The notes under the pieces are model-generated. The model was not told the DNA's origin. It ran no database searches and worked only from the letters and a program-made list of their open reading frames with translations. Shown piece by piece: positions 1 to 60,590 of a stretch of DNA of 64,000 nt. Positions within the stretch are counted from its first letter, which is position 1, and every line of letters begins with the position of its first letter. The stretch spans positions 11,006 to 75,005 of the forward strand of contig MFUG01000013.1 of the NCBI GenBank assembly GCA_001785615.1, in the 5' to 3' direction. The stretch comes from Candidatus Nomurabacteria bacterium RIFCSPHIGHO2_02_FULL_42_19. Lineage in GTDB: Bacteria > Patescibacteriota > Minisyncoccia > Phycocordibacterales > UBA9973. Made by a program: the position numbers and the translations under genes.

Positions 1-430
1 GAATTCATTGGCAAGCTCTATTTGCTCTACGAATGCTTGCTTTTGTTTAGAAATTGACTCGCTATCTAGCCGATAATAATCAAGTCCACACTCGCCTATG
101 GCTACTACCTTAGGATCTTTTAAAAGTTCTCTGTATTTATTTTTATCAAATATTTCCCCGCGTGAAGTAAATTCTTTGCCGCCTTCCCCTAATTCTTTAA
201 TATCATGAAACGAGGCGCCGGTATGTATCGGATGAAGTCCTACGATTGCGTACACACCTTTTTTATATTGATTCGCCATTTCAACCGCTTTAATAGAAGT
301 ATGCACTTGCGTGCCGACATTTATAACCCAAGTATCCCGCTCTAGCGCGCGTTTGATTACTTCCTCCCTATCCGCATCAAAAGCGGTAAAGTTGACATGG
401 GAGTGTATGTCTATATATTTTGGGGTCATA
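1..430 (-). CDS. TatD-family metal-dependent hydrolase (DNase). N-terminal part only; the C-terminus runs off the window edge
   Basis: Reverse translation from the ATG at 428-430 gives MTPKYIDIHSHVNF...VAIGECGLDYYR. The IDxHxH and GECGLD motifs are typical of TatD. It sits immediately downstream of metG, the conserved metG-tatD arrangement. Confidence 0.7.
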
Positions 431-1900
431 TTAGTCCTTGCGCAAAAATAACGGCTGGTCGGGTTTTTTGTTTTCTTTTATCAGTTTTTTAAGCAACTCA
501 TTAGTGCTAGGCATTATCGGATTTAGCATTCTAGCTATTTTATACAAGCGGATAACAGCGGAAGAAATTAATTCTTTCCCCTTTTTTTCGTCTACTTTTA
601 TAACCTTAAACGGTTCCGTTTCTTGAATAAATTTATCAAGTTCACTGATTTCTTTCCAAGTAAAATCCACTGCTTTATTAATTTCAAATTTATCCAAGTA
701 ATCTTTCCATTCTTGCGGGATAGAATGCTCTGGAATTTCTGGACACTTGTTTAAATACTTCTCGGATAAAGTTAAAATACGACTTACCAAATTCCCCAAC
801 CCATTTGCCAGATTCGCATTGTATGCCTCTTTAAACCTTTCCATAGTAAAAGGACTGTCTTCAAATGAAGAAATCTCACGCAAAAGAAAATAACGCAATG
901 CGTCTGTGCCATATTCTTTTACAACTTCTATAGGATCTATGCCATTCCCTAGGGATTTAGACATTTTTATTCCGCCCTCGCCGGTGATAAAACCGTGATA
1001 AACAATTGTGTCTGTAGTTGGCATTCCAACCGACATCAACATTCCCTGCCACATTACGGATTGGAATTTAACCATGTCTTTCCCAGCTATCTGAATTTTT
1101 TCTCCATTGACCCAGAACTTTTCAAAAAGACCCTCCCCTCCTGCCAGAGGAGGGGAGAGGGGATGGTGGGAGTCGGGCCAGCCCAAGGTGGAAAGATAAT
1201 TTACAAAAGCGCCAAACCATACATACATTACTTGGGCATCGTCCCCTGGTATCGGCACCCCCCAGGAAAAGCGTTTCTTGTCGCGGGAAATAGAAAAGTC
1301 CTCCATGCCTTCGGATACGAAATCAATTGCTTCACGCCGACGCCACTCTGGAAAAATTGCTTTTTCTTTTGCGAGATAATCTAAAAGCTGCTTTCTGTAA
1401 TTTGCTAATCTAAAAAAATAATTTTCTTCCTCCACCATCTCGGGCTTTTTATCCGGATGAAGTGAGCATTTTCCTTCCATTAGATCTTTTTCAGTAATAA
1501 ATTTTTCACATCCTACGCAATAAAGCCCTCTGTATTTTTTTTTATAAATATCACCCTTAGCGTCACAAAGACGCCAAAATTCCTGCGCTGCTTTCACGTG
1601 TTCTCCGCTTGTGGTTCTGATAAAATTATCGTAGGAGAGATTTAACACATCTTTCAGGCCCAGAAACTTCTCTGCATAAAAATCCACATAACTTTGCACA
1701 TCCTTGTCTTCCTTTAAACTTCCCTCCCAGATTTTTTGACCATATTCGTCTGTGCCAGTACTGAAAAATACATCGCGTCCTACTAGCCGCTGATATCGTG
1801 CCATCGCATCCGCTTGCACAAGCTCAAGCGCAAAGCCAATATGAGGATCCGCATTCACATATGGAATCGTGGTCGTAATGTAAAAACTATTTTTTTTCAT
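431..1900 (-). CDS. metG: Methionyl-tRNA synthetase
   Basis: Class I aaRS with the P-Y-V-N-A-D-P-H-I-G-F HIGH-type motif, KMSKS (KMSKSLGN) and a Zn knuckle (CVGCEKF). Confidence 0.9.
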   Translation of the reverse strand: MKKNSFYITTTIPYVNADPHIGFALELVQADAMARYQRLVGRDVFFSTGTDEYGQKIWEGSLKEDKDVQSYVDFYAEKFLGLKDVLNLSYDNFIRTTSGEHVKAAQEFWRLCDAKGDIYKKKYRGLYCVGCEKFITEKDLMEGKCSLHPDKKPEMVEEENYFFRLANYRKQLLDYLAKEKAIFPEWRRREAIDFVSEGMEDFSISRDKKRFSWGVPIPGDDAQVMYVWFGAFVNYLSTLGWPDSHHPLSPPLAGGEGLFEKFWVNGEKIQIAGKDMVKFQSVMWQGMLMSVGMPTTDTIVYHGFITGEGGIKMSKSLGNGIDPIEVVKEYGTDALRYFLLREISSFEDSPFTMERFKEAYNANLANGLGNLVSRILTLSEKYLNKCPEIPEHSIPQEWKDYLDKFEINKAVDFTWKEISELDKFIQETEPFKVIKVDEKKGKELISSAVIRLYKIARMLNPIMPSTNELLKKLIKENKKPDQPLFLRKD

Positions 1901-1903
1901 TCG

Positions 1904-2995
1904 TTATTTATCGTTGGTTTTGGTTAAAATTTTACGTTTCTCAATATCATTCGAGAGCTCCACTACCAGAATAGACAAGGGAATCGCCAATACTACTCCC
2001 CAGAAAGAGGCAAGTTCAAAACCAATTAAAGCGGCAAGAATTATGACGATAGGTGAAAGCCCTACCACTTTTTTGATAATTAAAGGAGCAAAAAGGAAGA
2101 CCTCAAATTGATGCACAATCAGGTAGGCCCCAGTTACCATTAGCGCGCTGCCAAGACCGCCGGAAAGATAAGAAAAGGAAATAGCGGGTATCAAAGCGAC
2201 GAGAATTCCATAGGGGATGAGTTCCATTATGCCGGCAATAATAGCCAGGAGCAGGGCATACTGTACCCCTAACAGAGAGAGCGTCAGATAAATCAGAACA
2301 CCGACGACCAAGCCAAGCAGAAGCTGACCCTTAACCCATAAAGCAATTTTGCGACTGGAGCGATTCCATAAATCCACCACATAATCCTCGTGTTTTATGG
2401 GTAAAATAACTCTTAAAAAATTTTCTATCCCTCTTTCTTGAATTGAAAGATAAAAAGAAATAAGAATAATCATGCCTACGTTGAAAATACTGCCGAAGGC
2501 CACGGAAAGTGTTTGGAAAAATCCACCGGAGAGATTTTCGATGAAGGCCTTGGACACCGCAGTCAGCGATGAAAACGATAAATTGTGTGATAAATTTGCG
2601 ACAATATCTTTGGCTCCAGAGAAGGCCTCGTTTTGAAAATAATTTAAAAAGTACACACCGGGAACGTAGGAAGAAAGGGCCGAGGAAAAATTATAAACTT
2701 CGGTGATTAAAAGTGGGGCGAAAAGATAAAATATTCCAGCCAGGGCAAGGATGGATACAGCGTATAAAAGAACTATGCCGAAAATTCTGCCGATTTTTAT
2801 TTTGCGGAAGTGAGGAACCGCTGATTCCACGAAAGAGGCAATGATAATAGAGGTTAGAATAATAAGGATTAGGTCTCGTAAGAACCAAAGCAAAAAGATG
2901 CCAAGAAGAACCAGGGCAGCTCGAACCATTGTCCCGGTAGTTATGGAAAAATGGGCTACATCATTTCTTTCTTGCATAGGAACATAATACCACAA
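1904..2995 (-). CDS. AI-2E (PerM/UPF0118) family membrane transporter
   Basis: 363 aa, about 8 TM helices. The hydrophobic pattern and length match AI-2E family permeases. No catalytic motif. Confidence 0.55.
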   Translation of the reverse strand: MWYYVPMQERNDVAHFSITTGTMVRAALVLLGIFLLWFLRDLILIILTSIIIASFVESAVPHFRKIKIGRIFGIVLLYAVSILALAGIFYLFAPLLITEVYNFSSALSSYVPGVYFLNYFQNEAFSGAKDIVANLSHNLSFSSLTAVSKAFIENLSGGFFQTLSVAFGSIFNVGMIILISFYLSIQERGIENFLRVILPIKHEDYVVDLWNRSSRKIALWVKGQLLLGLVVGVLIYLTLSLLGVQYALLLAIIAGIMELIPYGILVALIPAISFSYLSGGLGSALMVTGAYLIVHQFEVFLFAPLIIKKVVGLSPIVIILAALIGFELASFWGVVLAIPLSILVVELSNDIEKRKILTKTNDK

Positions 2996-3020
2996 ATATT
3001 ACAGATGAAAAGCAAACAAA

Positions 3021-4289
3021 CTAAAACTTTAGTTTTCTCAAAAACTTGGATTTTTTCTTAAAAGGTCCAATGAGCGCCAGATTAAGTTTGTTATTCTTGA
3101 AAATGTGCTGGGCTAGAGTTTTTATTTGGCTAGCGGTAACACGGCGTATTTTATCTATTTTGTCTTCTGCATTTTTTGTTTCGCGTTTTAATAGTTCCTG
3201 CCCTCCATAAAAATTGGCGATGTCATCAGTGGACTCAAGCGAGAGCTTCAGGTTGCCTATCAGGCATTCTTTTACCTTATTTAATTCTTCCTCTTCTACT
3301 TTGTAAATTTTTAGCTTCCGACATTCCTCTAGTACTGCCTTTATCACTTCGGCTATCCTTTTATTATCCACTCCGGCAGAAATTTGAAAAAATCCGTGGT
3401 CAGTATAAGCGTCGTTATACGCGCGAACATAATATCCTACTCCCATCTCCTCGCGTAATTTTTGAAAAAGTCGGGAGCTCATTCCGCCACCCAAAATTCC
3501 GCCTAATACTGAAAGTATTGCGCTTTTTTTGCTAAACAAATCATGGGTGCGTACGCCCAACACGAAATGTGTTTGGTCTGTTTTCTTGAATTTAACTAGG
3601 GCGCATGGCTTTTTCTGTATTTCTTTCACTTTAACTTTTTTTGCTTTTTTCCCACGGGAAACATTATCAAAAATCTTTTTTATTTCTTTCAGCACTTCCT
3701 TTTCATTCACCTGCCCGACCACTACGATCACCGTGGCCTCCGGTAGATAGTGCTCTTCTTTATAGCGCACAAAATCATCCCGTTTCATTCTGAAAATATT
3801 TTTTTTAGAACCGGCAATATTCCAGCCCGCTGGCTGATCGCCATAAAGTAGTTTCATGACCAGGTCCTGCACATGTCGGTTCGGCATATCTTCATACATA
3901 TTTATCTCTTCAATGATTACTCCTTTCTCCTTTTCTATTTCTTGTTCTGGGAAAGTGGAATTAAGATAGACATCTGAAACAACATCCAGAATTTGCTTAA
4001 AATGCTTCGCATCGGACTTGGCATAGTAACCTGTATATTCTTGGGCGGTAAAAGCATTATATTCACTCCCTAGGGCGTCTAATTCTTTGGAAATGTCTAT
4101 CGCTTTGGGCCTGCGGAGTGTTCCCTTAAAACACATATGTTCTAAAAAGTGGGAGATGCCGTTTAATTTTTTCGTTTCGTACTTGCTGCCCGCTTCCACC
4201 AAAACCAAGACCGTCACCGTCGGATTATCCTGCATCGGAATAGTTACCACCCGCAGTCCGTTTTTAAGAGTTGTTTTTGAGAATCCCAT
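3021..4289 (-). CDS. M16 (pitrilysin/insulinase) family zinc peptidase
   Basis: Inverted zinc-binding motif HFLEH (HxxEH) near the N-terminus. 422 aa with the M16 two-lobe layout. Confidence 0.8.
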   Translation of the reverse strand: MGFSKTTLKNGLRVVTIPMQDNPTVTVLVLVEAGSKYETKKLNGISHFLEHMCFKGTLRRPKAIDISKELDALGSEYNAFTAQEYTGYYAKSDAKHFKQILDVVSDVYLNSTFPEQEIEKEKGVIIEEINMYEDMPNRHVQDLVMKLLYGDQPAGWNIAGSKKNIFRMKRDDFVRYKEEHYLPEATVIVVVGQVNEKEVLKEIKKIFDNVSRGKKAKKVKVKEIQKKPCALVKFKKTDQTHFVLGVRTHDLFSKKSAILSVLGGILGGGMSSRLFQKLREEMGVGYYVRAYNDAYTDHGFFQISAGVDNKRIAEVIKAVLEECRKLKIYKVEEEELNKVKECLIGNLKLSLESTDDIANFYGGQELLKRETKNAEDKIDKIRRVTASQIKTLAQHIFKNNKLNLALIGPFKKKSKFLRKLKF

Positions 4290-4326
4290 CGTTAAAATAT
4301 ATCACGCCATATAAATCTTCACAATA

Positions 4327-4363
4327 ATTGCCTATTTTTACGCTATAGCGTAATTATAAGCAA
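4327..4363. repeat. Family-1 palindromic repeat, copy a (attgcctatttttacgctatagcgtaattataagcaa). Contains a perfect 16-bp palindrome, ttacgctatagcgtaa
   Basis: 34/37 identical to the copy at 4972-5008. Abuts the stop of ORF 4368..4970. Confidence 0.85.
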
Positions 4364-4367
4364 TAAT

Positions 4368-4970
4368 CTAACAAGGTAGGTTAAAAACTTCTCGAATGCG
4401 CCTATCATTTTCAATACTGTCAGCAATAACATAGAGGAGATCCTTGCCAATTTTAAAGTCTGCCTTGAGAAGCATTACCAGATCTTCGCAGTCGTAGGGG
4501 AAAATCCACACACTATCTTGTAAATAATGAAACCCGATTTGCTTAAGTGTGCTACGTATTTTTTCACGCGTATTTTTTCTTTTCTCTTTTACGTCAAATA
4601 TAAGCATTCTCCACTTCCCATCCCAGCGCCTTGGCCTCTCGAATTGATAATCCTTTAATTCAAATTGGCGAAGCTTCGCCTCTCCTTTTGGGGTCAAACG
4701 AGCGAAGGTTCCATTTTCCGTTTGCTCAAAAATTATCAATCCTTCATTTTTTAGCCTATTCCAGGATCGATTAACAGAATATTTACCGAATTTATTCTTC
4801 ATAAATTGCGGCTCGATTTGAGCTAGAACTTTCGTCATCTTTGGGGCTACTAAAGCAACACTCAACCCACCCAAGGCAAATACTGTGCTTAAAATTGCCT
4901 TTTGAATATTTGCCTTTTTTGAGCGTTTTCTTGAAGCTTTTTCTAACTGCCCCATGTAATCATAATACAC
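4368..4970 (-). CDS. PaaX-like small protein: N-terminal winged-HTH-like region plus C-terminal Cas2/VapD-like motif. Paralog 1 of 4
   Basis: C-terminal motif WRMLIFDVKEKRKNTREKIRSTLKQIGFHYLQDSVWIFPY follows the Cas2 pattern hhYD-x-R-R-x-L-x-G-x-Q-SVF. Paralogous to 17789..18352, 9235..9708 and 27139..27636. Alternative start GTG at 4970 or ATG at 4955. Confidence 0.5.
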   Translation of the reverse strand: MYYDYMGQLEKASRKRSKKANIQKAILSTVFALGGLSVALVAPKMTKVLAQIEPQFMKNKFGKYSVNRSWNRLKNEGLIIFEQTENGTFARLTPKGEAKLRQFELKDYQFERPRRWDGKWRMLIFDVKEKRKNTREKIRSTLKQIGFHYLQDSVWIFPYDCEDLVMLLKADFKIGKDLLYVIADSIENDRRIREVFNLPC

Positions 4971-4971
4971 T

Positions 4972-5008
4972 ATTGCCTATTTTTACGCTATAGCATAATT
5001 ATAGACAA
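4972..5008. repeat. Family-1 palindromic repeat, copy b
   Basis: Direct repeat of 4327-4363 (34/37 identical). Abuts the start codon of ORF 4368..4970. Confidence 0.85.
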
Positions 5009-5037
5009 CAAGTTTTATAACTTGCCTTTATATAATT

Positions 5038-5295
5038 TCAAGAAATTCGGTAACCCAAAAATTCATAATCTAAAATATCGGTAGAATATTCTTCTTTTAT
5101 TTCTTTCTTAAGAGTGTTCTCAATAGTATCCCCAAACTCGACTCCCCCGCCGCCGGGATCCCAGGTCCCTTTTTCGTCTCTGGAATTTTGTCCTCTTTTA
5201 CTTAAAAGAACATTTTTTTTCCCGTCATGGCAAAAGTAAACTACTGCAATTCCGGTATAATCTTCACCTCTTTTCATATTAGATTTTTTCTTCAA
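5038..5295 (-). pseudogene. NUDIX hydrolase, C-terminally truncated (85 aa)
   Basis: The Nudix box GGGVEFGDTIENTLKKEIKEE is present, but the ORF stops only 18 aa after it. The missing ~50 aa would lie where the family-1 repeat-flanked module now sits. Confidence 0.5.
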
Positions 5296-6532
5296 TATAT
5301 TTTACTAGGTCAGAAACCTTTATTCGCTCTTGTAGGGCAGTATCGCGGTCGCGGATGGTGACAGTATCGTCTTTCAGCGTGTCAAAATCAATGACGATGC
5401 AGTAAGGGGTGCCGATTTCGTCCTGCCGACGATAACGCTTGCCGATATTGCCGTTATCGTCCCAGGCCACGCGACCGAATTCGGCCTTGAGGGGCGCATA
5501 GACCTTGGTATTGGCATATTCTACTAACTCGGGTTTATTCTTTAGAAGTGGCGAGACGGCGCAAATAACTGGCGCCATGTTGGGTTTAAACTTGAGATAC
5601 ACTCTGGGGCCGTCCTTTTCGCCTGCCCCGTTGGAAACTTGCTTTCCTTCGGGGTCTTCTTTATAAGCAGAAAGAAGAAGCGCGAGAACTGCGCGATCCA
5701 CCCCGAAAGTTGGCTCAATTACATGTGGTACTATTTTTTCATTTTTCTCTTCATCAATGTAATCAAGCTTATGATTACTTAAATCAAAATTCGTTCGGTA
5801 AGCCAGGCCGAAAAGTTCTTTACGTCCGAAAGGATAATCGAATTCAAAGTCAGTCGTTCTTTTGGAATAATGTGCTCTCTCCCCATTCGGAACCTCAAGT
5901 TCGTGCACTTTTGTCATATCAATGCCTATTTCTTTCATCCATTCAAGCATTTCATCCTTCCAGTATTCAAAATATTTTTCCCATTCGGATGCTCTTACAA
6001 AATATTCTATTTCCATCTGTTCAAACTCACGCTGACGAAAAAGAAAATCGCGAGGAGCGATTTCATTTCGGAAGGCCTTACCTATTTGGGCAATACCGAA
6101 AGGTAGCTTGGGATGATGGGCGTCAATTAGGTTCTTGAAATTTACAAAAATCCCCTGTGCGGTTTCCGGGCGTAAATAGGAGGTAATAGCTTCTTCGCCT
6201 GCCCCCACTTGGGTTTGAAACATTTCGTTAAATTTTTTACCCTCGGGGGTTGTGCTTAAAAACCCGGCTACGTGACCCGAAGCAACCCAAACTTTTGGAT
6301 TAAAAATGATGGAAGAATTCAGGCCATACATATCACGCCTGGAATCAACAAACTTTTTCCACCAAGAATTTTTTATATTGTTTTGCAACGCAAGACCGTA
6401 ATGTCCATAATCGTAAAAACCGGCCAGTCCTCCATAAATTTCCGAACTCTGGAAAACAAAACCGCGCCTTTTGCAAAGCGAAACAATTTTCTCCATTAGA
6501 TTGTCATCAGTTTTTGACATATTTTTATTCAA
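5279..6532 (-). CDS. glyQS: Glycyl-tRNA synthetase, dimeric class II type
   Basis: The N-terminus FQSSEIYGGLAGFYDYGHYG and the class II core motifs match GlyRS (alpha2 type). Confidence 0.85.
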   Translation of the reverse strand: MNKNMSKTDDNLMEKIVSLCKRRGFVFQSSEIYGGLAGFYDYGHYGLALQNNIKNSWWKKFVDSRRDMYGLNSSIIFNPKVWVASGHVAGFLSTTPEGKKFNEMFQTQVGAGEEAITSYLRPETAQGIFVNFKNLIDAHHPKLPFGIAQIGKAFRNEIAPRDFLFRQREFEQMEIEYFVRASEWEKYFEYWKDEMLEWMKEIGIDMTKVHELEVPNGERAHYSKRTTDFEFDYPFGRKELFGLAYRTNFDLSNHKLDYIDEEKNEKIVPHVIEPTFGVDRAVLALLLSAYKEDPEGKQVSNGAGEKDGPRVYLKFKPNMAPVICAVSPLLKNKPELVEYANTKVYAPLKAEFGRVAWDDNGNIGKRYRRQDEIGTPYCIVIDFDTLKDDTVTIRDRDTALQERIKVSDLVKYIEEKI

Positions 6533-8456
6533 CTACCCGGTCTCCGTTCGACGGGAAAGCGGAATCATTTACCAGCCGAGTATTAAGCGATGCTTTATTA
6601 ACTCTGATATCCAGATTAGCAAAATCGTCGTGCCCAGTCAAAGTTGCGTCGTTTATAATAACAGGAATGGTATTAACTTGAGACAACGAAGGGATAAAGG
6701 TGACAACAAAAGAGACCTCCTTGCCGGTAGTTGTGATCCCTGTTCCCCTCGGAATATTGCCTATATTCCAGATTATTTCTTTGGTTGAAGAATTATAAAT
6801 TAAATCCTCCGACGAAGGAGAAAATTTTCCTGCAAAATTTATCCACGGGGGAAGGGTAGAGCGTACGGACGCTTTAGAAATATTGTTGGCGGTATTAGAA
6901 AGAGACCACGCCACAGTATAAGTCGTTTCTTCTTCGGCCTTGGGGGGAATAGCTCCGGTATTCTTAAAAGGTCCGGAAAAATAAAGCGCTTTCGCGGCCA
7001 GTCCCGTATCAGAAATAATTTTAATTACCGAGGATTCTTTGTTGCCCAGGTCTTTGGATTCATACCCGGCGAGCGTTTGCTGCCCTGAAATATCTACGTC
7101 AATATTTATAGAAGGGTTAGCCAGCATGCCACTTGAGGCAGAAAATAGGGAGAGGGAGGAAATAGAAAAACTCACTGATCCAGAATCCCCCGGGTCTATT
7201 TCCTTAAATCTACTAATGGAATTTTTGTCCCAAATAATTACATCTTCGGATGAATTATAAAAGCCCTGCTTGGCAAAGATGGTTTTGCGATTGACCGCAT
7301 TCCCAGAAATTTTCGCGCGAATTTCCAGATCACTTATCTTGGTATCCAAGTTGTTGGTAAAACGAACTTCGGCATTAATGGGGGTACCAGAATAGCTAGA
7401 ATATTCTCTTTGACTTGCACCATCGATAAAAAACTTCGCCTCAATAAGAGGTTTTTTAATAACGACTGTCTGCTTTAAGGAGTTGAAAACGGTGCCAATA
7501 GTGGACTTGTCGGCAGCGGATTGTGACCCGCTCCAAACGTGAAAGGTTTTTTCTTCACCGTCAAAAACATCCAATATCTTGCCTTCGACGTAAATATTTT
7601 TGTCTGCCCCAGGAGCCAGATCCCCTAAGTCCCAAATATTATTGCCAAATGAGGGGGCCGGCGTTGCCTTGGTAAATTGAAAACCGACAGGATAATCAAG
7701 CCGCAGAAGCATCTTGGCCGCCGGCCGCGTAGCGTTCAGTGTGGCTTTTACTTTCAGGGTCATATTTTGATTTGGGCTTACGGAAGTCGGAAGATCCAGT
7801 GAAAGATTTATCGGGGTAGAGTTTATAGTTACTTCATATGATTTTTCCTTTACGAAAATAGCGTTGGATCCTTCTACCCGATACTCAATAGAAATTTTAA
7901 TGGGGCGAATACTGCCTTGTTCGCCAAAAAGAACTACTCTTACATTTTCATTTCTAATTACTCCCGGCGGAATAGTGCCTAGGGACTCGCGGATGCGTTC
8001 TGTTTCCGACCCCAGATTGACTTCTGAATTTTTGGGGTATTCCACAACCAGGTCGACAAGTTCCAGCGCCGAGGTATTTCTATTGGTTATACCAATCTGT
8101 AACGGTAGTTCTTCTCCGCCAGCAGTAAAAGCATTTCCCAGAATAGAGATATCTATGTTGTTGTTGGAAACGGTATTGCTTTCAACAAAAAACATGTAGG
8201 AGGCATATCCGACAGCCAAAATAAAAAAACCTACAGAAAAAATGAAAAACTTCTTAAAGAGAGACGTTTTTATAAAAAATTTTTCCCCTAAATCTTGCGC
8301 CACCCGTCCGCTAGTCCTCCAAACGTCCGGAACGTCCTTCGTTTCTAAGGGAGTAAAATTATCTCGATGCTCTACCTTTGTTTTATAACTTTTACTGAAA
8401 AGTTTGCTTTTTAGTTCTTCTATTCTGTTTAATTTATCTCCATCGCCTGATACCAT
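6525..8456 (-). CDS. Large membrane-anchored surface protein with a beta-rich repetitive ectodomain
   Basis: 643 aa. Cytoplasmic N-terminus of ~70 aa, then a single TM helix (FFIFSVGFFILAVGYASYMFF), then a long Ser/Thr/Asn-rich extracellular region. No recognised catalytic motif. Confidence 0.5.
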   Translation of the reverse strand: MVSGDGDKLNRIEELKSKLFSKSYKTKVEHRDNFTPLETKDVPDVWRTSGRVAQDLGEKFFIKTSLFKKFFIFSVGFFILAVGYASYMFFVESNTVSNNNIDISILGNAFTAGGEELPLQIGITNRNTSALELVDLVVEYPKNSEVNLGSETERIRESLGTIPPGVIRNENVRVVLFGEQGSIRPIKISIEYRVEGSNAIFVKEKSYEVTINSTPINLSLDLPTSVSPNQNMTLKVKATLNATRPAAKMLLRLDYPVGFQFTKATPAPSFGNNIWDLGDLAPGADKNIYVEGKILDVFDGEEKTFHVWSGSQSAADKSTIGTVFNSLKQTVVIKKPLIEAKFFIDGASQREYSSYSGTPINAEVRFTNNLDTKISDLEIRAKISGNAVNRKTIFAKQGFYNSSEDVIIWDKNSISRFKEIDPGDSGSVSFSISSLSLFSASSGMLANPSINIDVDISGQQTLAGYESKDLGNKESSVIKIISDTGLAAKALYFSGPFKNTGAIPPKAEEETTYTVAWSLSNTANNISKASVRSTLPPWINFAGKFSPSSEDLIYNSSTKEIIWNIGNIPRGTGITTTGKEVSFVVTFIPSLSQVNTIPVIINDATLTGHDDFANLDIRVNKASLNTRLVNDSAFPSNGDRVVE

Positions 8457-8512
8457 CCCTTTATTATACCATCCCGAACGAGATTGAGAAAATCTCTGAC
8501 GGGACAGGCATT

Positions 8513-9043
8513 TTATAAATGTGTTTCTTTCAGAACTCGATTTATTAAAGAGACCGCTTGGGCTTTGTTCCTGGCCTCGTATCCTCCCTCAACATAACCA
8601 AGTTTCTCTAAAATACCTAGGACAAGGGTTATTTCATAATCTTCAAATTCTTCCTGGGAGTGCGCATTCTCAACACTCGACAACCCCATAATTATTTCCT
8701 TAAACAATGGCTCATTCGCCTCCGTCCCGGGCAGTAAGCGTTTAAGTAGACGAGAGACATTGCTAAAAATTTTTAAACTTTCCCGTTTTTTGGTAATATT
8801 TTCCAGATAGCTTGTTTTTTCCGCAGTGGTAATACGCCAGAAGTCCTTACCTTGCACTAGGTCAATTTTTAAGTAAGCGAAATCCTGCAGCACAAAACGA
8901 AGTTTCGAGGACATTTTGCGCACGCCCGAGGCCGAAGCATAGATCATCCCGAGATCGCGAGTGAAAACGTAATAATACCTCCCCGCCTCTCCAAAATTTT
9001 TACTCCCCAATATTATCCCCTCGGTGTGGTAAATGTGATGCAT
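8513..9043 (-). CDS. recO: RecO-like recombination mediator, short form
   Basis: N-terminal OB-fold pattern TEGIILGSKNFGEAGRYYYVFTRDLGMIYASASGVRK and the later ITLVLGILEKLGY resemble RecO. The C-terminal Zn-finger region is absent. Confidence 0.5.
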   Translation of the reverse strand: MHHIYHTEGIILGSKNFGEAGRYYYVFTRDLGMIYASASGVRKMSSKLRFVLQDFAYLKIDLVQGKDFWRITTAEKTSYLENITKKRESLKIFSNVSRLLKRLLPGTEANEPLFKEIIMGLSSVENAHSQEEFEDYEITLVLGILEKLGYVEGGYEARNKAQAVSLINRVLKETHL

Positions 9044-9201
9044 GATTAGGGTAGCTTAACTAAATGCCAAGACCAATTTTCTAGAAAAAGGGTCTTTCGC
9101 TCTGCTCGCCCATGACTCTGTATATTTATTATAATAACTTAAATTTCTTTTGACTTCCTTCCTCATATATTTATTTTATCATATTCCTTCTCAGTTTATC
9201 T

Positions 9202-9241
9202 AACATAACACTACATCGCGACCGCGATAGATTGTTATGTT
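9202..9241. repeat. Family-3 palindromic repeat, copy a (aacataacactacatcgcgaccgcgatagattgttatgtt)
   Basis: Imperfect palindrome with outer arms aacataaca/tgttatgtt and core tcgcgaccgcga. Overlaps the stop of ORF 9235..9708. Shares the core and outer arms with 9718-9753. Confidence 0.75.
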
Positions 9242-9708
9242 GCTTTTCTAACCCTAAACACACGGATGTTTTCATAAATACCAAGAACTCTCAACCTCTC
9301 ACCAAATTCTTTTGGTAGAGGACCATGACCAAGCCATAAGCTTTTATGAATCATCTCAAAATCCCAATATTTTATCTGATTGCGGAGCCAGTCCCTAGTT
9401 TTTTTCTTGGTTTCAGGTATATCAAAAGATAGCAACACTCTTTCGGTCTTGCCTGGATAAATATTTTTCATCACCGAGTTATTCTTTACGGCAAGTTTAG
9501 CTAAATCCTCTCGACAAATATGAATGGTCTCGCCGTCTGTCTCAACAACCCCCTGCTTTCCTAACCGATAAATGCGTTGCCGAAAAGCTTCCGGAGTTAG
9601 GTTTTTTTGCCTTGCTCGCATTCTTTTCCACAACATCTTCCTGTATATTTTTGTTGAACGAGAAGACAGTAAAAATGCTATTAAGTGATCTACTATCGTC
9701 GGTTGCAT
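9235..9708 (-). CDS. PaaX-like/Cas2-like-motif small protein, paralog (subfamily B)
   Basis: C-terminal motif VLLSFDIPETKKKTRDWLRNQIKYWDFEMIHKSLWLG. Closest to 27139..27636 (shared FDIPE-K-R-WLR-I-KS-W-G-PLP-EF). Confidence 0.5.
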   Translation of the reverse strand: MQPTIVDHLIAFLLSSRSTKIYRKMLWKRMRARQKNLTPEAFRQRIYRLGKQGVVETDGETIHICREDLAKLAVKNNSVMKNIYPGKTERVLLSFDIPETKKKTRDWLRNQIKYWDFEMIHKSLWLGHGPLPKEFGERLRVLGIYENIRVFRVRKAT

Positions 9709-9717
9709 GGGTATATT

Positions 9718-9753
9718 ATAACATATTTTCGCGACCGCGAAGGAACGTTATGT
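9718..9753. repeat. Family-3 palindromic repeat, copy b (ataacatattttcgcgaccgcgaaggaacgttatgt)
   Basis: Shares aacata...tcgcgaccgcga...gttatgt with 9202-9241. Sits ~10 nt upstream of the start of ORF 9235..9708. Confidence 0.7.
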
Positions 9754-9758
9754 GTGAA

Positions 9759-10397
9759 TTACAAATTTTCTTCTTTGCCAATTTCCAAAACTTTAAATTC
9801 AATACTGTGTTTTATTAGAACAACGCTGGGAGTTCTATGCACAATACCTGGTATTTTTATATTCCAATCGTGAACTGGAAAACATACACGAGGGGCAAGT
9901 GAAATGGCATAATCTATGGAATCTTTAATTTTTAGCCACGGCGCCAAGACCGGAAGCGCAAGTATTTCTACTTTTTTCCCAGGGTTAGTAAATGAATCAC
10001 CAGGATAGAATAAATTTTTTCCAATAAAATAACCAGTATTTTGAACTTGACCAAACTCTTCATAAATTTCTGCGTGCTTGTCTCCATGGGCCTCTAGAGA
10101 AACCCCCATGAATTCTTCCGACTGCCCATCCTCAAGCTTTTTATATTTAATCCCAGCTTCGTCCAGTATCTTGCCTACCCCGCTGTTAGTAATGACTACG
10201 GCGTTTTGGTTACTTACTAAAATGTTTTTCAACGAATCAGTATGTAAGTGGTCTCGGTGTTCGTGAGAAATAATTATAATATCAATATTTTTCTCCATTT
10301 CCTGTTCTGAAATAGTATAAGATCCCGGATCAGTCATTACCCTTTTACCGTTTATCTCTATCACCAGGCAACAATGTCCTAGTTTTTTGATCTTCAT
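9759..10397 (-). CDS. MBL-fold metallo-hydrolase
   Basis: HxHxDH motif (SHEHRDHLH) in a 212-aa protein. Confidence 0.7.
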   Translation of the reverse strand: MKIKKLGHCCLVIEINGKRVMTDPGSYTISEQEMEKNIDIIIISHEHRDHLHTDSLKNILVSNQNAVVITNSGVGKILDEAGIKYKKLEDGQSEEFMGVSLEAHGDKHAEIYEEFGQVQNTGYFIGKNLFYPGDSFTNPGKKVEILALPVLAPWLKIKDSIDYAISLAPRVCFPVHDWNIKIPGIVHRTPSVVLIKHSIEFKVLEIGKEENL

Positions 10398-10409
10398 TTC
10401 TACATTTTA

Positions 10410-11009
10410 TCACAGAATTTCTTCCAGGGCCTTTAGTAAGTCCTCAGGGGTGCTGACAACCTTTGCAGGGTTAGCTTTTTGTAAATTTTCTTCTTCATGA
10501 AATCCCCAGGTAACGGCGATGGACTTGATCCCGCATTCCCGTGCTTCGGCAATATCGCCTGTTGTGTCTGTAATAAAAACAGCATTTTCTGATGTAATTT
10601 TATATTTTTCCAAAAGCATTTTGTTTTTCACAACTTTGCTGGTGTGAATATCTCCTCCTAATATATCGGAAAAACATTCGAGGACATTCGCTTGTTTTAA
10701 AATTTTTGTTATGAGTGCTGACGGCGTCGCCGAAACAATGGCAAGTTTGTAATCTTTGTTTAGTTCAAAAATGATGTCTTGTAATGGTTGTGGTACCTTA
10801 AACTCCCGTGACTGTTCTTCGTATCGTTCGAAAAATTTAGGATGTTGTTTTACTTTAGGATTATTTTTTAATGAATTATAAATATTCCCATTAAAAAGAG
10901 AGCGGAACATGTGAAGAGACAAGTTTTCATTGGTCTCTTTGCTAATTTCATAACTCACTATGAATGTATCCACCAAGACCCCATCAAAATCAAAAAGAAT
11001 CAATTTCAT
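10410..11009 (-). CDS. HAD-superfamily hydrolase/phosphatase
   Basis: N-terminal motif I LILFDFDGVLVDT (DxDG). Confidence 0.75.
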   Translation of the reverse strand: MKLILFDFDGVLVDTFIVSYEISKETNENLSLHMFRSLFNGNIYNSLKNNPKVKQHPKFFERYEEQSREFKVPQPLQDIIFELNKDYKLAIVSATPSALITKILKQANVLECFSDILGGDIHTSKVVKNKMLLEKYKITSENAVFITDTTGDIAEARECGIKSIAVTWGFHEEENLQKANPAKVVSTPEDLLKALEEIL

Positions 11010-14000
11010 ACTTTATCAATCTTTACTTTGAAAACCAACTCCCCTATTTTCACCTCTTCGCTATTAGTGTCTTTAAATTCTATTTTGGATGCCAGTGCAA
11101 TTTTTTTAATATCTTGCTCAAATTTTTGGATTAAACTCTTTCCCGCGTCGTCGGTTTCAACAGAAAGGGTGATCATGTCGCTCGGCGTCAGCCCCATTTT
11201 CTTCCGCATATCTTGAACAGCGCGCAAAAGCTCGCGATAACTTCCCTCTTGCTTTAATTCATGAGTTAACTCAGTAATTAATTTAAATTCCTTTCCGGCT
11301 GAAACTTCTTTGACGTTCAATTCATCTTTTATTAGCTCAATATACTCTGTGGTTAAACTTAAATTCGCCAACTCTAACTTAGCAAGCGGCTGACGAACTT
11401 GGATTTTCGCTTTCTGCCTGGCTTCTAACCCTAAAGAAACTATTTTTCTAACCTCTGCCATGTTTTCTAAAACTTTTGGCCGAAGGTCCCGAGCAGAAAC
11501 GAGGGGCCACTCGGCCAAATGCACACTGCCTACATCCTTATCTGTTTTTAGTCGGCGCCAAATATCTTCTGCCGCAAACGGAGTAAACGGGGCCATAATT
11601 TTCGCTAGAGTTTTCAAAATAAAATACAAAGTTGCTTTCGCGTCCCCGTCTCCCTCTTTAATCCGCTCGCGGGAGCGGCGAAGGTACCAAGTAGAAAGGT
11701 CCCCTATAAAATCCTTTATCGCGCGGGTCGGTTCAAGCAATTTATAATTGTCTAAGCTGTCAGTAGTGAGTTTTACCAGCTCATTTAGTCGAGCTATGAT
11801 CCATTGATCAAGGACATTGGTAGGCTTTAGGCGGTAGGCACTAGGCTCTAGCGAAACATTCCGATATAGTTCATAGAAAGCCAACACATTGTAGAGCAGG
11901 CCGAAAACCTGCTGATGAAGAAGAGCCACCGTTTTTTCATCAAAATTTTTGGACTCACCCGGCTGATTGACCGAATACATCCATAAGCGCAGTGTATCCA
12001 CACCGTATTTATCTATCATTTCCCACGGGTTCACAATATTTCCCAGGGATTTGGACATTTTTTTACCATTGGCATCGAGTAAATGCCCGAGGCAAATCAC
12101 ATTTTTATACGCTTTTCCCCGGCCCATCAGCACCCCCACTGCGTGCAGGGTATAAAACCATCCACGGGTCTGGTCAATAGCTTCCGAAATAAAATCCGCC
12201 GGGTAGCCCTTGCCGTCTACCCATTTTTTGTTTTCAAAGGGATAATGATCTTGAGCGAAAGGCATGCAGCCGGAATCCAGCCACACATCCATTACCTCTT
12301 TAGTTCTTACCGCACTGCCGCCACAGTCGCACACCAGATGAACCCCATCAATATACGGACGATGCAAGTCAAGTTCATAATTTTCATTGTGCGGCAATGG
12401 GATAAAATCTAATTTTTTCATTTCTCCCGTATGAAGCATTTCTTTTTCTTTAAAATTATTATCTGAAGATCCAGCGGATATTTTTTGTAAAACCCATAAA
12501 GGGTTGCCGTGAGAAACTATAAGAATATTTTTCCCTTGATATTTATTATCAATCTCATATATAAATTCCGCCATTCTTCTCCTAACAATATCCTCACTGC
12601 CTTCGTTTGATTCATGAAGCCGATCATCAACTAAAACAGCGTCGGGAGCAAGGCCTAGTTCATTTTTTACTACCTCTGCGGTCTCTTTGGTTCTTAAAAA
12701 TGGCGAGGAAAATATCGGGTTTATATCTTTTAATTTCTTAGATGTAGATATTGCTTCCTTTTTACCTTTTTCAGTCAAGTGATTGTCCGGATCACCCTTT
12801 GGGTCCAACAAGTGTTTGGCGTTATTAATTGCTTCTCCATGCCGCATAATAAAATATTTATTGCCGGATTTTTTAGTTTTACTTTGGAGATCTTCCAAGC
12901 CCCCGACGACATGCCTCTTCTCACATTTTTCGCAAGTCCAGACGGGCAGAGGCGTGCCCCAGTATCGCTCGCGGGATATTGCCCAGTCCTTGATCTCCCG
13001 TAGCCATTCGCCGAAACGTCCCTCGCGGGTATGCGCCGGCTCCCAGTTTATATTTTTATTTTCATTAATTAGTTGTTTCTTAATTTTTGGATCCGACATT
13101 TTGATATACCAAGAGTCCCGCGCATAGTATATGAGCGCTGTCTTACAGCGCCAGCAGTGCGGATATGAGTGTTGATAGTTTTCTTTATCGAAAAATAAAT
13201 TTTTATCTGTTAAATATTTAATAATGTCCACATCCAAAGTTGGCTTTCCACTGTCGTCTTTTTCTCTCACAAATCTTCCTCCCAAGAACCCTGTGCCTTC
13301 TATAAACTTACCTTCGGGGTCTACCAGATGGTGTTTCGGTAGTCCTACTTTCGTACCAAGCTCAAAATCGTCTTGCCCATACATCACCGCGGTGTGCACG
13401 ATACCCGTACCGTCTTCAGTATTTACAAAGTCCGCCGCGTAAACCCGAAAGGCCTTATCTGTTGACTCCCCTTTTTTCTCTAGTTGTTCTTTTAAGTATG
13501 GGAAAAGTGGTTCGTACTCTAGCCCAACCAAATCTTTGCCTTTCATTTCGGTTATAACTTCAGGATTTTCACCAAAAACAGGAAGTCGCGCCTTTGCTAG
13601 AATATATATTTCGTCCCCGCTTTTGACTTTCACATAATCAACCTTCTCCCCCACCGCAAGCGCGACATTCCCTGGCAAAGTCCAAGAGGTGGTCGTCCAG
13701 GCCAAGAAATACATATTGGCCGAGTCTGTATGCTTTTGTGAAGGAGTGGCTGAGCGTAGTGAGGAACCGAGCGACTGAGGAAAAGCATCAGGCGAGGCCA
13801 GCTTGAACTTTACATAAACCGAAAGATCTTTCACTTCTTCATACCCCTGTGCGAGCTCGTGTGAAGAAAGCGCGGTGCCGCATCTCGGGCACCAAGGTAC
13901 CACCTTGTAATCCTTGTAAAGAAGTTTCTGATCATCTACTTTTTTTACAACATTCCAAACCGATTCAATATAATCATTGTGATATGTGGCATACGCATTT

Positions 14001-14437
14001 TCTTGATCTACCCAATATCCGACACGTTCGGTAAATTTATTCCAGGCCTCAAGATATTCCCAGACGCTCTCCCTGCATTCCTGATTAAATTTAGCTACAC
14101 CGTATTCCTCAATCGCTTTTTTTGAATTAAGACCTAATTTCTTTTCTACCTGGATTTCTACTGGAAGTCCATGCGTGTCCCAACCGCCCTTGCGGCGTAC
14201 ATGGTACCCCTGCATCGTTTTGTAGCGAGGAATCGCATCTTTGAAGACACGCGCTTCCAAGTGGTGAAGCGCTGGTTTAGCATTGGCCGTCGGCGGACCT
14301 TCGTAAAAGATAAATTCTTTTTTACCTTCGGATTCTTTTAATGTCTTTTCAAAAATTTTATTCTCGCGCCAAAATTCCAAGATGCGCTCTTCCCGAAGAG
14401 CCGCATCTGATTTTTTATTCTTTTCGGTTTCAGCCAT
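11006..14437 (-). CDS. ileS: Isoleucyl-tRNA synthetase (type 2, archaeal/eukaryote-like) with an inserted histidine-phosphatase (PGAM-like) domain
   Basis: Editing-domain motif WTTTSWTLPGN, KMSKS (KKMSKSLGN), LHRPYID...DVWLDSG. A ~125-aa insert at aa ~527-650 reads KYFIMRHGEAINN...LTEKGKKEA...SSPFLRTKETA...ILIVSHGNPL, i.e. the RHGE...SHG pattern of the histidine phosphatase superfamily. HIGH motif is non-canonical (PALHHLEA). Confidence 0.85.
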   Translation of the reverse strand: MAETEKNKKSDAALREERILEFWRENKIFEKTLKESEGKKEFIFYEGPPTANAKPALHHLEARVFKDAIPRYKTMQGYHVRRKGGWDTHGLPVEIQVEKKLGLNSKKAIEEYGVAKFNQECRESVWEYLEAWNKFTERVGYWVDQENAYATYHNDYIESVWNVVKKVDDQKLLYKDYKVVPWCPRCGTALSSHELAQGYEEVKDLSVYVKFKLASPDAFPQSLGSSLRSATPSQKHTDSANMYFLAWTTTSWTLPGNVALAVGEKVDYVKVKSGDEIYILAKARLPVFGENPEVITEMKGKDLVGLEYEPLFPYLKEQLEKKGESTDKAFRVYAADFVNTEDGTGIVHTAVMYGQDDFELGTKVGLPKHHLVDPEGKFIEGTGFLGGRFVREKDDSGKPTLDVDIIKYLTDKNLFFDKENYQHSYPHCWRCKTALIYYARDSWYIKMSDPKIKKQLINENKNINWEPAHTREGRFGEWLREIKDWAISRERYWGTPLPVWTCEKCEKRHVVGGLEDLQSKTKKSGNKYFIMRHGEAINNAKHLLDPKGDPDNHLTEKGKKEAISTSKKLKDINPIFSSPFLRTKETAEVVKNELGLAPDAVLVDDRLHESNEGSEDIVRRRMAEFIYEIDNKYQGKNILIVSHGNPLWVLQKISAGSSDNNFKEKEMLHTGEMKKLDFIPLPHNENYELDLHRPYIDGVHLVCDCGGSAVRTKEVMDVWLDSGCMPFAQDHYPFENKKWVDGKGYPADFISEAIDQTRGWFYTLHAVGVLMGRGKAYKNVICLGHLLDANGKKMSKSLGNIVNPWEMIDKYGVDTLRLWMYSVNQPGESKNFDEKTVALLHQQVFGLLYNVLAFYELYRNVSLEPSAYRLKPTNVLDQWIIARLNELVKLTTDSLDNYKLLEPTRAIKDFIGDLSTWYLRRSRERIKEGDGDAKATLYFILKTLAKIMAPFTPFAAEDIWRRLKTDKDVGSVHLAEWPLVSARDLRPKVLENMAEVRKIVSLGLEARQKAKIQVRQPLAKLELANLSLTTEYIELIKDELNVKEVSAGKEFKLITELTHELKQEGSYRELLRAVQDMRKKMGLTPSDMITLSVETDDAGKSLIQKFEQDIKKIALASKIEFKDTNSEEVKIGELVFKVKIDKV

Positions 14438-17221: not shown

Positions 17222-17347
17222 TATTACTCTTTTATGCGCTCGTGAATTCCCTTTAAAAAATCATCGGGTTTTTCTTTCAATTCTTTTTTTAATTCTTCTT
17301 CTGAAAACCATTTAACTTCGGCTACTTCTTCTTTTCTAACTTTAAAT

Positions 17348-17704
17348 TCAGATATTTTTTTTATCTAAAACAATACTAAACTGCTGTACGAAATAATTAT
17401 AATTTGTTCTTTTTCTTAATCTAGCCCCTGAAACTAGTTGTATGTTTGTAAGTCCCAGTTCTTCCTCCGCCTCTTTTATTATGTTCGATTCGTAAGTTTC
17501 ACCCTCTTCTACAGTTCCCGCTACTGCTGGCCCCCATTTCCCCGGATCATGACTTTTACTAAAAGCCCGCCGTGCAAGTAAAATTTCACCTTTACTATTT
17601 CTAATCCATAAAGATGAAACACGATAAATGGCATTGGCGTCTTGGTCGTTTCTCTCTCTATATTCTATAACATCGTCGTTCTTATCCACTATCGGAATTT
17701 TCAT
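17348..17704 (-). CDS. NUDIX hydrolase
   Basis: Nudix box GTVEEGETYESNIIKEAEEELGL. Confidence 0.8.
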   Translation of the reverse strand: MKIPIVDKNDDVIEYRERNDQDANAIYRVSSLWIRNSKGEILLARRAFSKSHDPGKWGPAVAGTVEEGETYESNIIKEAEEELGLTNIQLVSGARLRKRTNYNYFVQQFSIVLDKKNI

Positions 17705-17746: not shown

Positions 17747-17780
17747 TAGCATTTGCTTACGACCGTTAGTAAATGCTAAA
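17747..17780. repeat. Family-2 palindromic repeat, copy a (tagcatttgcttacgaccgttagtaaatgctaaa)
   Basis: Stem tagcattt/aaatgcta around a cgaccg core. 8 nt upstream of the start of ORF 17789..18352. Near-identical to 18355-18388 and related to 60557-60590. Confidence 0.85.
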
Positions 17781-17788
17781 ATGGTTCA

Positions 17789-18352
17789 ATGAGTCAAAAT
17801 ATTAAACGGCTAGGGACTACGCAACGAAAGATTCTTCTGCTTCTTCTGGCAGGGCTCGCGTTGGGTTTAACCAGATCGCCGAAAAAGCATTGGTGGATTT
17901 TAAAACAGATACCGAAAGAATGGAAAAAGATAAACCGACAAGCCCTGGAGAGGGCGATTAATTCTCTTTATGTTTCTCATCTAGTGCAGAAGGAACAACA
18001 CAGAGATGGCACAACCACTTTTGTCTTGAGTGAAAATGGTAAACGAAGGGCCTTGCGATTTAATATCGATAAGATGGAAATCAAAAGGCCGGGTAAGTGG
18101 GATAATAAATGGCGAGTGGTGATGTTTGATATTCCAGAAAAATTAAGGAGGTTGCGAGATTCTTTACGTTTACATTTCCGTGAAATAGGTTTAATTGAAC
18201 TCCAAAAATCAGTTTTTGTATATCCTTATCCATGCAGTAAGGAAATCGAGTTTATCTTGGAATTCTACAATACAAGAAGGCATGTGCGTTTTCTCTTGGT
18301 CGAAAAGATAGATAATCAGCTTCATTTAATGAAAAAATTTAATCTGTGTTAG
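17789..18352 (+). CDS. PaaX-like small protein (wHTH + Cas2/VapD-like motif), paralog (subfamily A)
   Basis: C-terminal motif WRVVMFDIPEKLRRLRDSLRLHFREIGLIELQKSVFVYPY. Aligns with 4368..4970 (RP-KWD-KWR...FD...Q-SV...PY-C). Confidence 0.5.
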   Translation: MSQNIKRLGTTQRKILLLLLAGLALGLTRSPKKHWWILKQIPKEWKKINRQALERAINSLYVSHLVQKEQHRDGTTTFVLSENGKRRALRFNIDKMEIKRPGKWDNKWRVVMFDIPEKLRRLRDSLRLHFREIGLIELQKSVFVYPYPCSKEIEFILEFYNTRRHVRFLLVEKIDNQLHLMKKFNLC

Positions 18353-18354
18353 TT

Positions 18355-18388
18355 TAGCATTTGCTTACGACCGTTTGTTAATGCTAAA
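18355..18388. repeat. Family-2 palindromic repeat, copy b (tagcatttgcttacgaccgtttgttaatgctaaa)
   Basis: 32/34 identical to 17747-17780. Begins 2 nt after the stop of ORF 17789..18352. Confidence 0.85.
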
Positions 18389-60556: not shown

Positions 60557-60590
60557 TAGCATTAGTGCGCGACCGCTTACTAATGCTAAA
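60557..60590. repeat. Family-2 palindromic repeat, orphan copy (tagcattagtgcgcgaccgcttactaatgctaaa)
   Basis: 10-bp perfect stem tagcattagt/actaatgcta around gcgcgaccgc. Same outer arms and cgaccg core as 17747-17780 and 18355-18388. Lies between the convergent kinase and methyltransferase genes. Confidence 0.8.

Follow-up and report, generated by a model that had tools for sequence, protein, structure and literature searches.

The GlyRS–M16 interval of the window

The window (i.e., the complete 64,000-nt stretch of DNA analysed here), which derives from a Candidatus Nomurabacteria (CPR) genome, carries on its minus strand a glycyl-tRNA synthetase gene (GlyRS; 5279..6532, identified via the Pfam domains tRNA-synt_2b and HGTP_anticodon) and an M16 peptidase gene (3021..4289), which form the conserved upstream and downstream anchors of the locus under study. 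Comparable loci were gathered from representative genomes by anchoring on GlyRS, and the best 80 loci of this genome scan (GlyRS 67–82% identical; mostly named Candidatus Nomurabacteria, Paceibacterota or Patescibacteria) were examined. The order GlyRS then M16 is conserved in 78 of these best 80 loci, either directly or after variable cargo, with the M16 orthologs in the 78 loci being 59–86% identical. In the window, the interval between both genes (4290–5278) is occupied by a short NUDIX open reading frame (ORF), followed by a PaaX-like gene (4368..4955, minus strand) that is flanked by two copies of a repeat. No Rfam match was found over 3000–6600 at E≤1, and no tRNA was found in window positions 1–12000.

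The NUDIX ORF extends over 5038..5295 on the minus strand (85 aa) when read from an upstream TTG at 5295, which is situated within the 3′ end of GlyRS. Since the orthologs start with MKKGEDY or MQKGxDY, the real start is likely the ATG at 5277, located 1 nt after the GlyRS stop, resulting in an ORF of 79 aa (5038..5277). The Pfam NUDIX profile matched the ORF with an E-value of 1.8e-7 and a score of 31.6 bits (passing the gathering cut-off of 21.1), with the match spanning just profile positions 4–67 of 134. Specifically, codons 1–77 (M...EFLGYR; 5047..5277, minus strand) include the family's Nudix box and show 75–79% amino acid identity to the closest full-length orthologs (i.e., those of L051, L027, and L043), which align with query residues 1–77 only, while no further stops or frameshifts occur within these 77 codons. 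The ORF then closes with the out-of-frame tail ATT TCT TGA (I-S-stop; 5038..5046, minus strand), a frameshift product at a position where the orthologs read D/E-V-H/F-R.

The Nudix box comprises residues 44–66 (G-GVEFG-D-TIENTLK-KEIKEEYST) and deviates from the canonical GX5EX7REUXEEXGU at three positions (D for E, K for R, and S for G). In the family alignment, however, K58, E59, E62, and E63 are invariant and D50 is nearly invariant, so that the box appears intact for its own family, in line with an earlier note made from the DNA sequence of this locus, and catalytic competence is putative. The distances given in that note need adjustment, with the ORF ending 13 aa after the box (16 aa after the EE pair) rather than 18 aa, and with its TGA (5040..5038) lying 26 nt, and not 30 nt, from the nearest repeat copy (copy b, 4972–5011).

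Complete orthologs at the same position

Among the best 80 GlyRS-anchored loci, 14 carry an orthologous NUDIX gene in the GlyRS|M16 interval. Thirteen of these 14 copies are complete (141–146 aa), and the remaining one (L017, 136 aa) is cut by a contig end. Compared to the complete orthologs, the window ORF is genuinely truncated, as had been proposed, and falls short by 62–67 aa rather than by about 50 aa. Moreover, nine of the 14 loci (L008, L027, L043, L048, L051, L052, L070, L082, and L086) are devoid of the PaaX-like module, and at this same GlyRS|M16 position all nine hold full-length copies (141–146 aa) instead of equally short ones.

A protein search yielded homologs of 131–139 aa with a conserved C-terminal half (i.e., ...EFLGYRDVHRxxxGKKTHWIALDFKVLVDRKKVKNGEPHKFDxxxWFxLxNLPxPLHSQFPxFLxKY), and the distant homologs P0002 and P0007 sit in other gene contexts. 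None of the NCBIfam equivalogs reaches its cut-off on this NUDIX family. Solved Nudix structures align to residues 8–128 of a full-length family member, and the fragment falls short of this alpha/beta/alpha fold, which takes about 130 aa when complete. Since the C-terminal half of this fold is absent, the 79-aa ORF is most likely an inactive pseudogene remnant. Some residual expression or function may be conceivable, with all family-invariant residues and the 1-nt spacing to GlyRS being kept.

The short allele of the window is also carried by two independent ENA metagenome contigs (L001 and L002, from samples ERZ4903125 and ERZ27254842), which are 99.6% identical to it with zero gaps and display the identical junction with two to three substitutions. 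The two to three substitutions among these three alleles are too few, and the nearest intact ortholog (79% identical) too far, for a dN/dS estimate.

The same NUDIX family has been independently damaged elsewhere. In L003 (6037–6461), a simple frameshift is situated near codon 87, while in L093 (60–278 and 638–1327; also in L094) the gene is cut at aa 68 and adjoins a zinc-ribbon, possibly IS-like ORF of 229 aa. In L095 (3001–3309), the gene is cut at aa 70 and adjoins an HTH-SocA_Panacea gene.

A probable internal deletion and the native 3′ end of the NUDIX gene

The native 3′ end of the NUDIX gene could be located just past the premature stop. On the minus strand, window positions 5053..5018 encode LPNFLKLYKGKL, in a frame that differs from that of the 5′ fragment, followed by a TAA stop at 5017..5015 (relic 5015..5053). 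This relic was picked up by tblastn with 14-residue ortholog C-termini, being identical in 11 of 12 residues to LPNFLKLYKDKL of L058 (E=2e-4), and its site was the best six-frame match for the C-terminal queries in the 64-kb window. The corresponding ortholog C-termini read ...LPNFLKLYKDKLK* in L058, ...PNFLNLYKDKI in L051, and ...PNFIKLYKDK in L027. At the DNA level, blastn against L051 showed about 29 nt past the premature stop to be 86% identical to the 3′ end of the L051 gene. In a search for the missing 3′ coding sequence elsewhere, as suggested in the earlier note, no match to the middle part (aa 78–130) was found in the 64-kb window (tblastn, six frames; all E>0.29).

Global DNA alignments to L027 and L058 placed a single 166-nt gap in the window gene, and the 5′ homology to the NUDIX orthologs stops at 5047. 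A loss of 166 nt equals 55 codons plus 1 nt, so that the reading frame changes and translation stops after I-S. Reading the sequence against these alignments places the deletion junction in an 8-nt stretch (GTTACCGA; 5047..5054, minus strand) that fits both frames, i.e., G-Y-R of the 5′ part and L-P-N of the 3′ relic. This stretch represents a possible microhomology, with the two sites of L058 that match the junction sharing just 4 of 8 nt. With both termini collinear, the interior gone, the frame broken, and the 13 complete orthologs intact, it is very probable that an internal 166-nt deletion with frameshift broke the NUDIX gene, and that the neighbouring module did not.

The ancestral gene would have encoded an accessory NUDIX hydrolase of about 143 aa that, when present, is situated between the GlyRS and M16 genes in Nomurabacteria. 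In the window lineage, 166 nt (about codons 78–132) would have been lost from its interior, so that the final 12 codons now follow codon 77 (R) out of frame and translation stops after I-S, while the native C-terminus and TAA remain, untranslated, directly downstream. Since GTTACCGA is compatible with both flanks, a slipped-strand or microhomology-mediated deletion via this stretch is suggested.

The PaaX-like gene and its flanking palindromes

The PaaX-like gene (195 aa from MGQLEK) encodes a winged-helix N-terminus and a Cas2-like PaaX_M domain (PF20803, E=1e-20), and has at least 1395 homologs. Its match to the NCBIfam PaaX equivalog (TIGR02277; 6e-12) covers profile positions 33–136 of 279 only and, with 45.6 bits, stays below the cut-off of 264.55. 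An assignment as the PaaX equivalog (i.e., the phenylacetate-operon repressor) was rejected because the score is far below this cut-off and the protein does not display the three-domain architecture. No relevant literature was found on PaaX/Cas2-like proteins in Parcubacteria or Patescibacteria.

The repeat flanking this gene, as reported earlier, is real, with two 40-nt copies of 90% mutual identity, each of which is an imperfect palindrome. Copy b (4972..5011), upstream of the gene, is centred around ATGCTATAGCGT (hairpin of –16.5 kcal/mol, z –5.2), while copy a (4327..4366), downstream of the gene, is centred around ACGCTATAGCGT (–16.1 kcal/mol, z –4.3). The palindrome extends to about 38 bp as ATTGT-n8-ACGCTATAGCGT-n8-ACAAT, with outer arms that vary between species but stay symmetric. 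In the 78 GlyRS-anchored loci, the core palindrome [AT][CT]GCTATAGC[GA][AT] occurs only in the seven loci with an orthologous PaaX-like gene, where, as in the window, it is present exactly twice per locus and flanks that gene. The core drifts in metagenome loci, with one of the two copies falling outside the strict pattern in L087 and L090, and with L088 having TTAGCGGTCGC, unlike the window. In L088 (ENA ERZ27251177), GlyRS is just 44% identical to that of the window, yet the PaaX-like protein and M16 are 70% and 67% identical, respectively, a pattern that could stem from GlyRS replacement or from module transfer.

An extended –10-like element (TGTATTAT; within 4955–4975) directly follows copy b and ends 6 nt before the ATG of the PaaX-like gene, and in orthologous modules a similar element (TGTATAAT) ends about 6–8 nt before the ATG. 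Inspection of the sequence before the PaaX-like genes revealed no apparent Shine-Dalgarno motif. Since the –10-like element directly follows the upstream palindrome and lies near the ATG, these genes would seem to be leaderless or nearly so and autoregulated. Downstream of the gene, a promoter-like site facing M16 (4290..4326, minus strand; TTGTGA, 17 nt, TATATT with TG) was recognized by consensus match only, in a promoter scan in which the number of sites was not above that of shuffled sequence. A conserved TGnTATATTTTA stretch also occurs after the downstream palindrome in L056, L077, and L087.

Two more PaaX_M genes are present in the window (9205–9753 and 17747–18388), each with its own different palindrome pair, of the TCGCGACCGCGA type and the TAGCATTTGCTTACGACCG type. 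A third copy of the TAGCATTTGCTTACGACCG-type motif is located at 60557–60590. Module 2 (9205–9753) has the arm architecture of module 1 in a different sequence, the hairpin of both consisting of outer arms of 9–10 bp, a gap of 2–3 nt, inner arms of 6 bp, and a 4-nt centre. The three window modules thus differ in their palindromes, and their proteins are just about 30% identical in related genomes.

The module lies behind the NUDIX gene

The earlier note had the NUDIX gene truncated exactly where the module begins, but the last 12 native codons and the TAA lie before the repeat. The palindrome begins 3 nt after this TAA, and a DNA pattern joining the NUDIX 3′ end to the palindrome is exemplified by TATAAAGGNAARTTATAAAACTTGTTG. 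A total of 725 nt (5014 to 4290) separates the native NUDIX stop from the M16 start. In L027 and L051, which have no module, the stop of NUDIX and the start of M16 overlap in an ATGA, so that these 725 nt represent an insertion into the gene junction and outside the ORF. Judging from these alignments, the module appears to sit in the former NUDIX|M16 gene junction and not to have cut the ORF.

A similar arrangement was found in L097 (same contig as L036), where a NUDIX 3′ relic (ELELYKGKLPFNS*; 3371–3420) follows the GlyRS stop immediately and is itself directly followed by the module. This relic aligns to the NUDIX 3′ end of L048 (...IYKDKLPFNL*), although the match is short, with a stand-alone E-value of 0.22 and about 79% identity over about 42 nt. 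The GlyRS of L097 is just 76% identical to that of the window, and its deletion is different and larger. An old GlyRS-NUDIX-module-M16 order in which the NUDIX gene decayed independently in the window and in L097 would be the simplest explanation, for which the L097 relic is supportive rather than decisive. Since no close relative (>90% identity) with an intact NUDIX gene beside the module was found, the order of events (i.e., insertion first and deletion later) is drawn from L097.

The possibility that the NUDIX relic is a part of the module was considered as well and rejected, since translation upstream of the modules in nine other loci revealed no such relic. An LYKDKL-type relic is absent from those of these loci in which the NUDIX gene lies downstream of the module, and L097, with an arrangement like that of the window, is the only locus to have one.

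Alternative explanations for the short ORF

The earlier note had read the short ORF as an insertion-associated truncation that would support mobility of the repeat-flanked module, i.e., entry of the module into the NUDIX ORF would have cut the gene short at that very point. The truncated ORF does stop only 26 nt from repeat copy b, the orthologs are full-length in module-free genomes, and the presence of the module varies among relatives. However, homology to the orthologs ends at 5047 and not at the repeat (4972–5011), and the repeat is preceded by the gene's own final 12 codons with their stop (5053..5015). Truncation by insertion would also have left the 3′ half of the gene beyond the module, where just 37 nt separate copy a from the M16 start, and no match to that half was found in the window. 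Target-site duplications were not seen at the module ends, and in none of the 12 other distinct module-bearing arrangements examined is an intact ORF interrupted by the module, which has genes or gene relics on either side in each. This scenario is therefore very unlikely, and the lesion is better described as the internal 166-nt deletion with frameshift. A less remote, though still improbable, variant would link the deletion to acquisition of the module, in that the module recombined in from a donor that already carried it downstream of a NUDIX gene. Of the two crossovers, one would have been homologous (in M16) and the other an illegitimate microhomology join between recipient codon 77 and donor codon ~132, so that NUDIX deletion and module gain were a single event. 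Both the differing gene orders in the hotspot, which imply recombination or rearrangement, and the possible microhomology at the NUDIX junction would fit such an event. Nevertheless, L097 has the same junction between NUDIX end and module with a different deletion, which makes an old arrangement with independent decay the simpler account, and the 36-nt relic bears no mark of foreign origin.

An assembly or sequencing artefact, with the gene being intact in the organism and the deletion mis-assembled, is the least probable reading of all. Metagenome-assembled CPR genomes do contain errors, and a further NUDIX gene of the window is broken in an A8 homopolymer, but two independent assemblies (ERZ4903125 and ERZ27254842) share the exact junction, gap-free and with two to three substitutions, and the loss of 166 nt in unique sequence is atypical of assembly errors. 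Hardly more credible is a functional mini-protein, in which the 79-aa fragment would be kept for metal or nucleotide binding, or for translational coupling to GlyRS. Such a role might be read from the retention of all family-invariant residues, from 77 codons free of further stops or frameshifts, and from the presence of the allele in three samples, although this conservation may just mean that the deletion is recent. Moreover, solved Nudix folds align through residue ~128, a half that the fragment has lost, and the short homologs P0002, P0003, and P0018 turned out to be independent lesions, without a family of equally short orthologs being found. Taken together, decay of the NUDIX gene by an internal deletion with frameshift remains the preferred explanation.

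Module mobility and the association with NUDIX and CYTH genes

Mobility of the module finds no support in the NUDIX truncation. The 13 distinct orthologous modules with known context (57–77% identical, in 15 loci) all reside in the GlyRS|M16 interval, and these 13 modules and 15 loci showed no sign of transposition to other sites, nor was a transposase or a target-site duplication found. An identity as IS or MITE was rejected on similar grounds, as the module encodes only the wHTH/Cas2-like protein, occupies a single interval, and displays no target-site duplication. Together with its two palindromes, the PaaX-like gene behaves as a single unit, whose place is invariably between genes or their relics. 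This module precedes the NUDIX gene in L023, L040, L058, L077, and L090, while it follows the NUDIX gene in the window and in L097. Since this order varies, rearrangement or recombination within the hotspot must have happened.

A NUDIX or CYTH gene or relic was found alongside in 6 of 7 module-bearing representative genomes versus 11 of 71 module-free ones (Fisher p=3e-4, not corrected for phylogeny). One could tentatively envisage a previously undescribed two-part accessory unit of CPR genomes, composed of a small PaaX-like regulator gene, set between two copies of its own palindromic operator of about 38 bp and with an outward-facing promoter, and an adjacent nucleotide-phosphate hydrolase (NUDIX or CYTH) as the partner that is decaying here. 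The regulator would then control the hydrolase, or sense its product or substrate, a proposal that, jointly with the unit itself, we consider rather unlikely. This pairing question concerns the modules and not the NUDIX truncation.

A NUDIX gene is the direct neighbour of another window module as well. This second NUDIX gene (17236–17704, minus strand) adjoins module 17747–18388, with its palindrome-flanked PaaX-like gene at 17789..18352 (plus strand), and is split by a shift of 1 nt within a run of eight A (A8). Frame 0 ends with ...FSIVLDKKNI*, and the next frame continues with KKISEFKVRKEEVAEVKWFSEEELKKELKEKPDDFLKGIHERIKE*. This split might reflect an assembly error in the homopolymer, or else the decay of a second NUDIX gene.

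The GlyRS|M16 junction as a hotspot

In Nomurabacteria, the GlyRS|M16 junction is a hotspot of gene flux with small cargo and numerous remnants. Across loci L007–L086 (interval equivalent to 4290–5278 in the window), GlyRS and M16 abut in 47 of 78 loci, separated by –1 to 32 nt, and in the remaining ones the interval holds varied cargo. Apart from CYTH genes, which were identified by Pfam, the names of this cargo were read from translated sequences. They include two other types of ORF with Nudix-like motifs (148–150 aa and 165 aa), pairs of 71-aa and 85-aa ORFs resembling RelE/RHH toxin-antitoxin systems, a recurrent ORF of 116–141 aa that resembles DUF559 endonucleases, a 232-aa ORF in L059, and a PanD-like ORF in L082.

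Gene relics lie directly upstream of the orthologous modules in L097, L096, and L077. In L096 (3241–3447), this is an ORF of 68 aa resembling what remains of a CYTH C-terminus, while in L077 (~7310–7360) it is the relic FIVVEGKKFKEKS* of a 165-aa NUDIX-like gene.

The NUDIX pseudogene of the window is one instance of the turnover at this hotspot, i.e., an ordinary decaying accessory gene. As one more such gene in a reduced CPR genome, it is of little importance in itself. Its analysis does take away one apparent argument that the repeat-flanked modules are mobile, for which the truncation should not be cited, and the finding that the PaaX-like gene and its palindromes behave as a unit may be useful background on the nature of these modules.

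Elsewhere in the window, an isoleucyl-tRNA synthetase (1143 aa; 11006–14437, minus strand) contains an inserted histidine-phosphatase (His_Phos_1) domain, an architecture shared with the L090/L091 ortholog.

Comparison with known systems

Within the Nudix superfamily (PF00293), the closest solved structures are 4kyx ('ADP-ribose pyrophosphatase MutT'), plant NUDT1 (6fl4 and 5gp0), and NudI (6dt3). Like members of this superfamily, the fragment exceeds the gathering cut-off of Pfam and has the Nudix box of its family, but it keeps just the N-terminal ~57% of the domain. The D, K, and S that set its box apart from the canonical one are a feature of the whole subfamily.

The PaaX-like gene shares the PaaX_M domain with PaaX-type regulators (PF20803), and its flanking palindromes of about 38 bp, the upstream one of which is followed by the extended –10-like element, provide the layout expected for autoregulation, with binding being predicted. 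Unlike PaaX, its 195-aa product has no PaaX C-terminal domain, and a second operator-like palindrome is located downstream of the gene.

Chromosomal hotspots of accessory-gene turnover occur between conserved core genes. The GlyRS|M16 junction resembles them in the variable cargo between conserved genes and in its frequent gene remnants. It differs from them in that neither an integrase nor a tRNA gene nor a transposase accompanies the site in the window, and in that the insertions are small units of one to two genes.

Bacterial pseudogenes can arise when short repeats promote an internal deletion with frameshift, through slipped-strand or microhomology-mediated events. While ancestral direct repeats are not visible at the NUDIX junction, so that the mechanism would have to be read from the outcome, the window gene otherwise resembles such pseudogenes in that both of its ends are kept in order, the loss is not a multiple of three, the stop follows two codons after the junction, and the junction fits both flanks.
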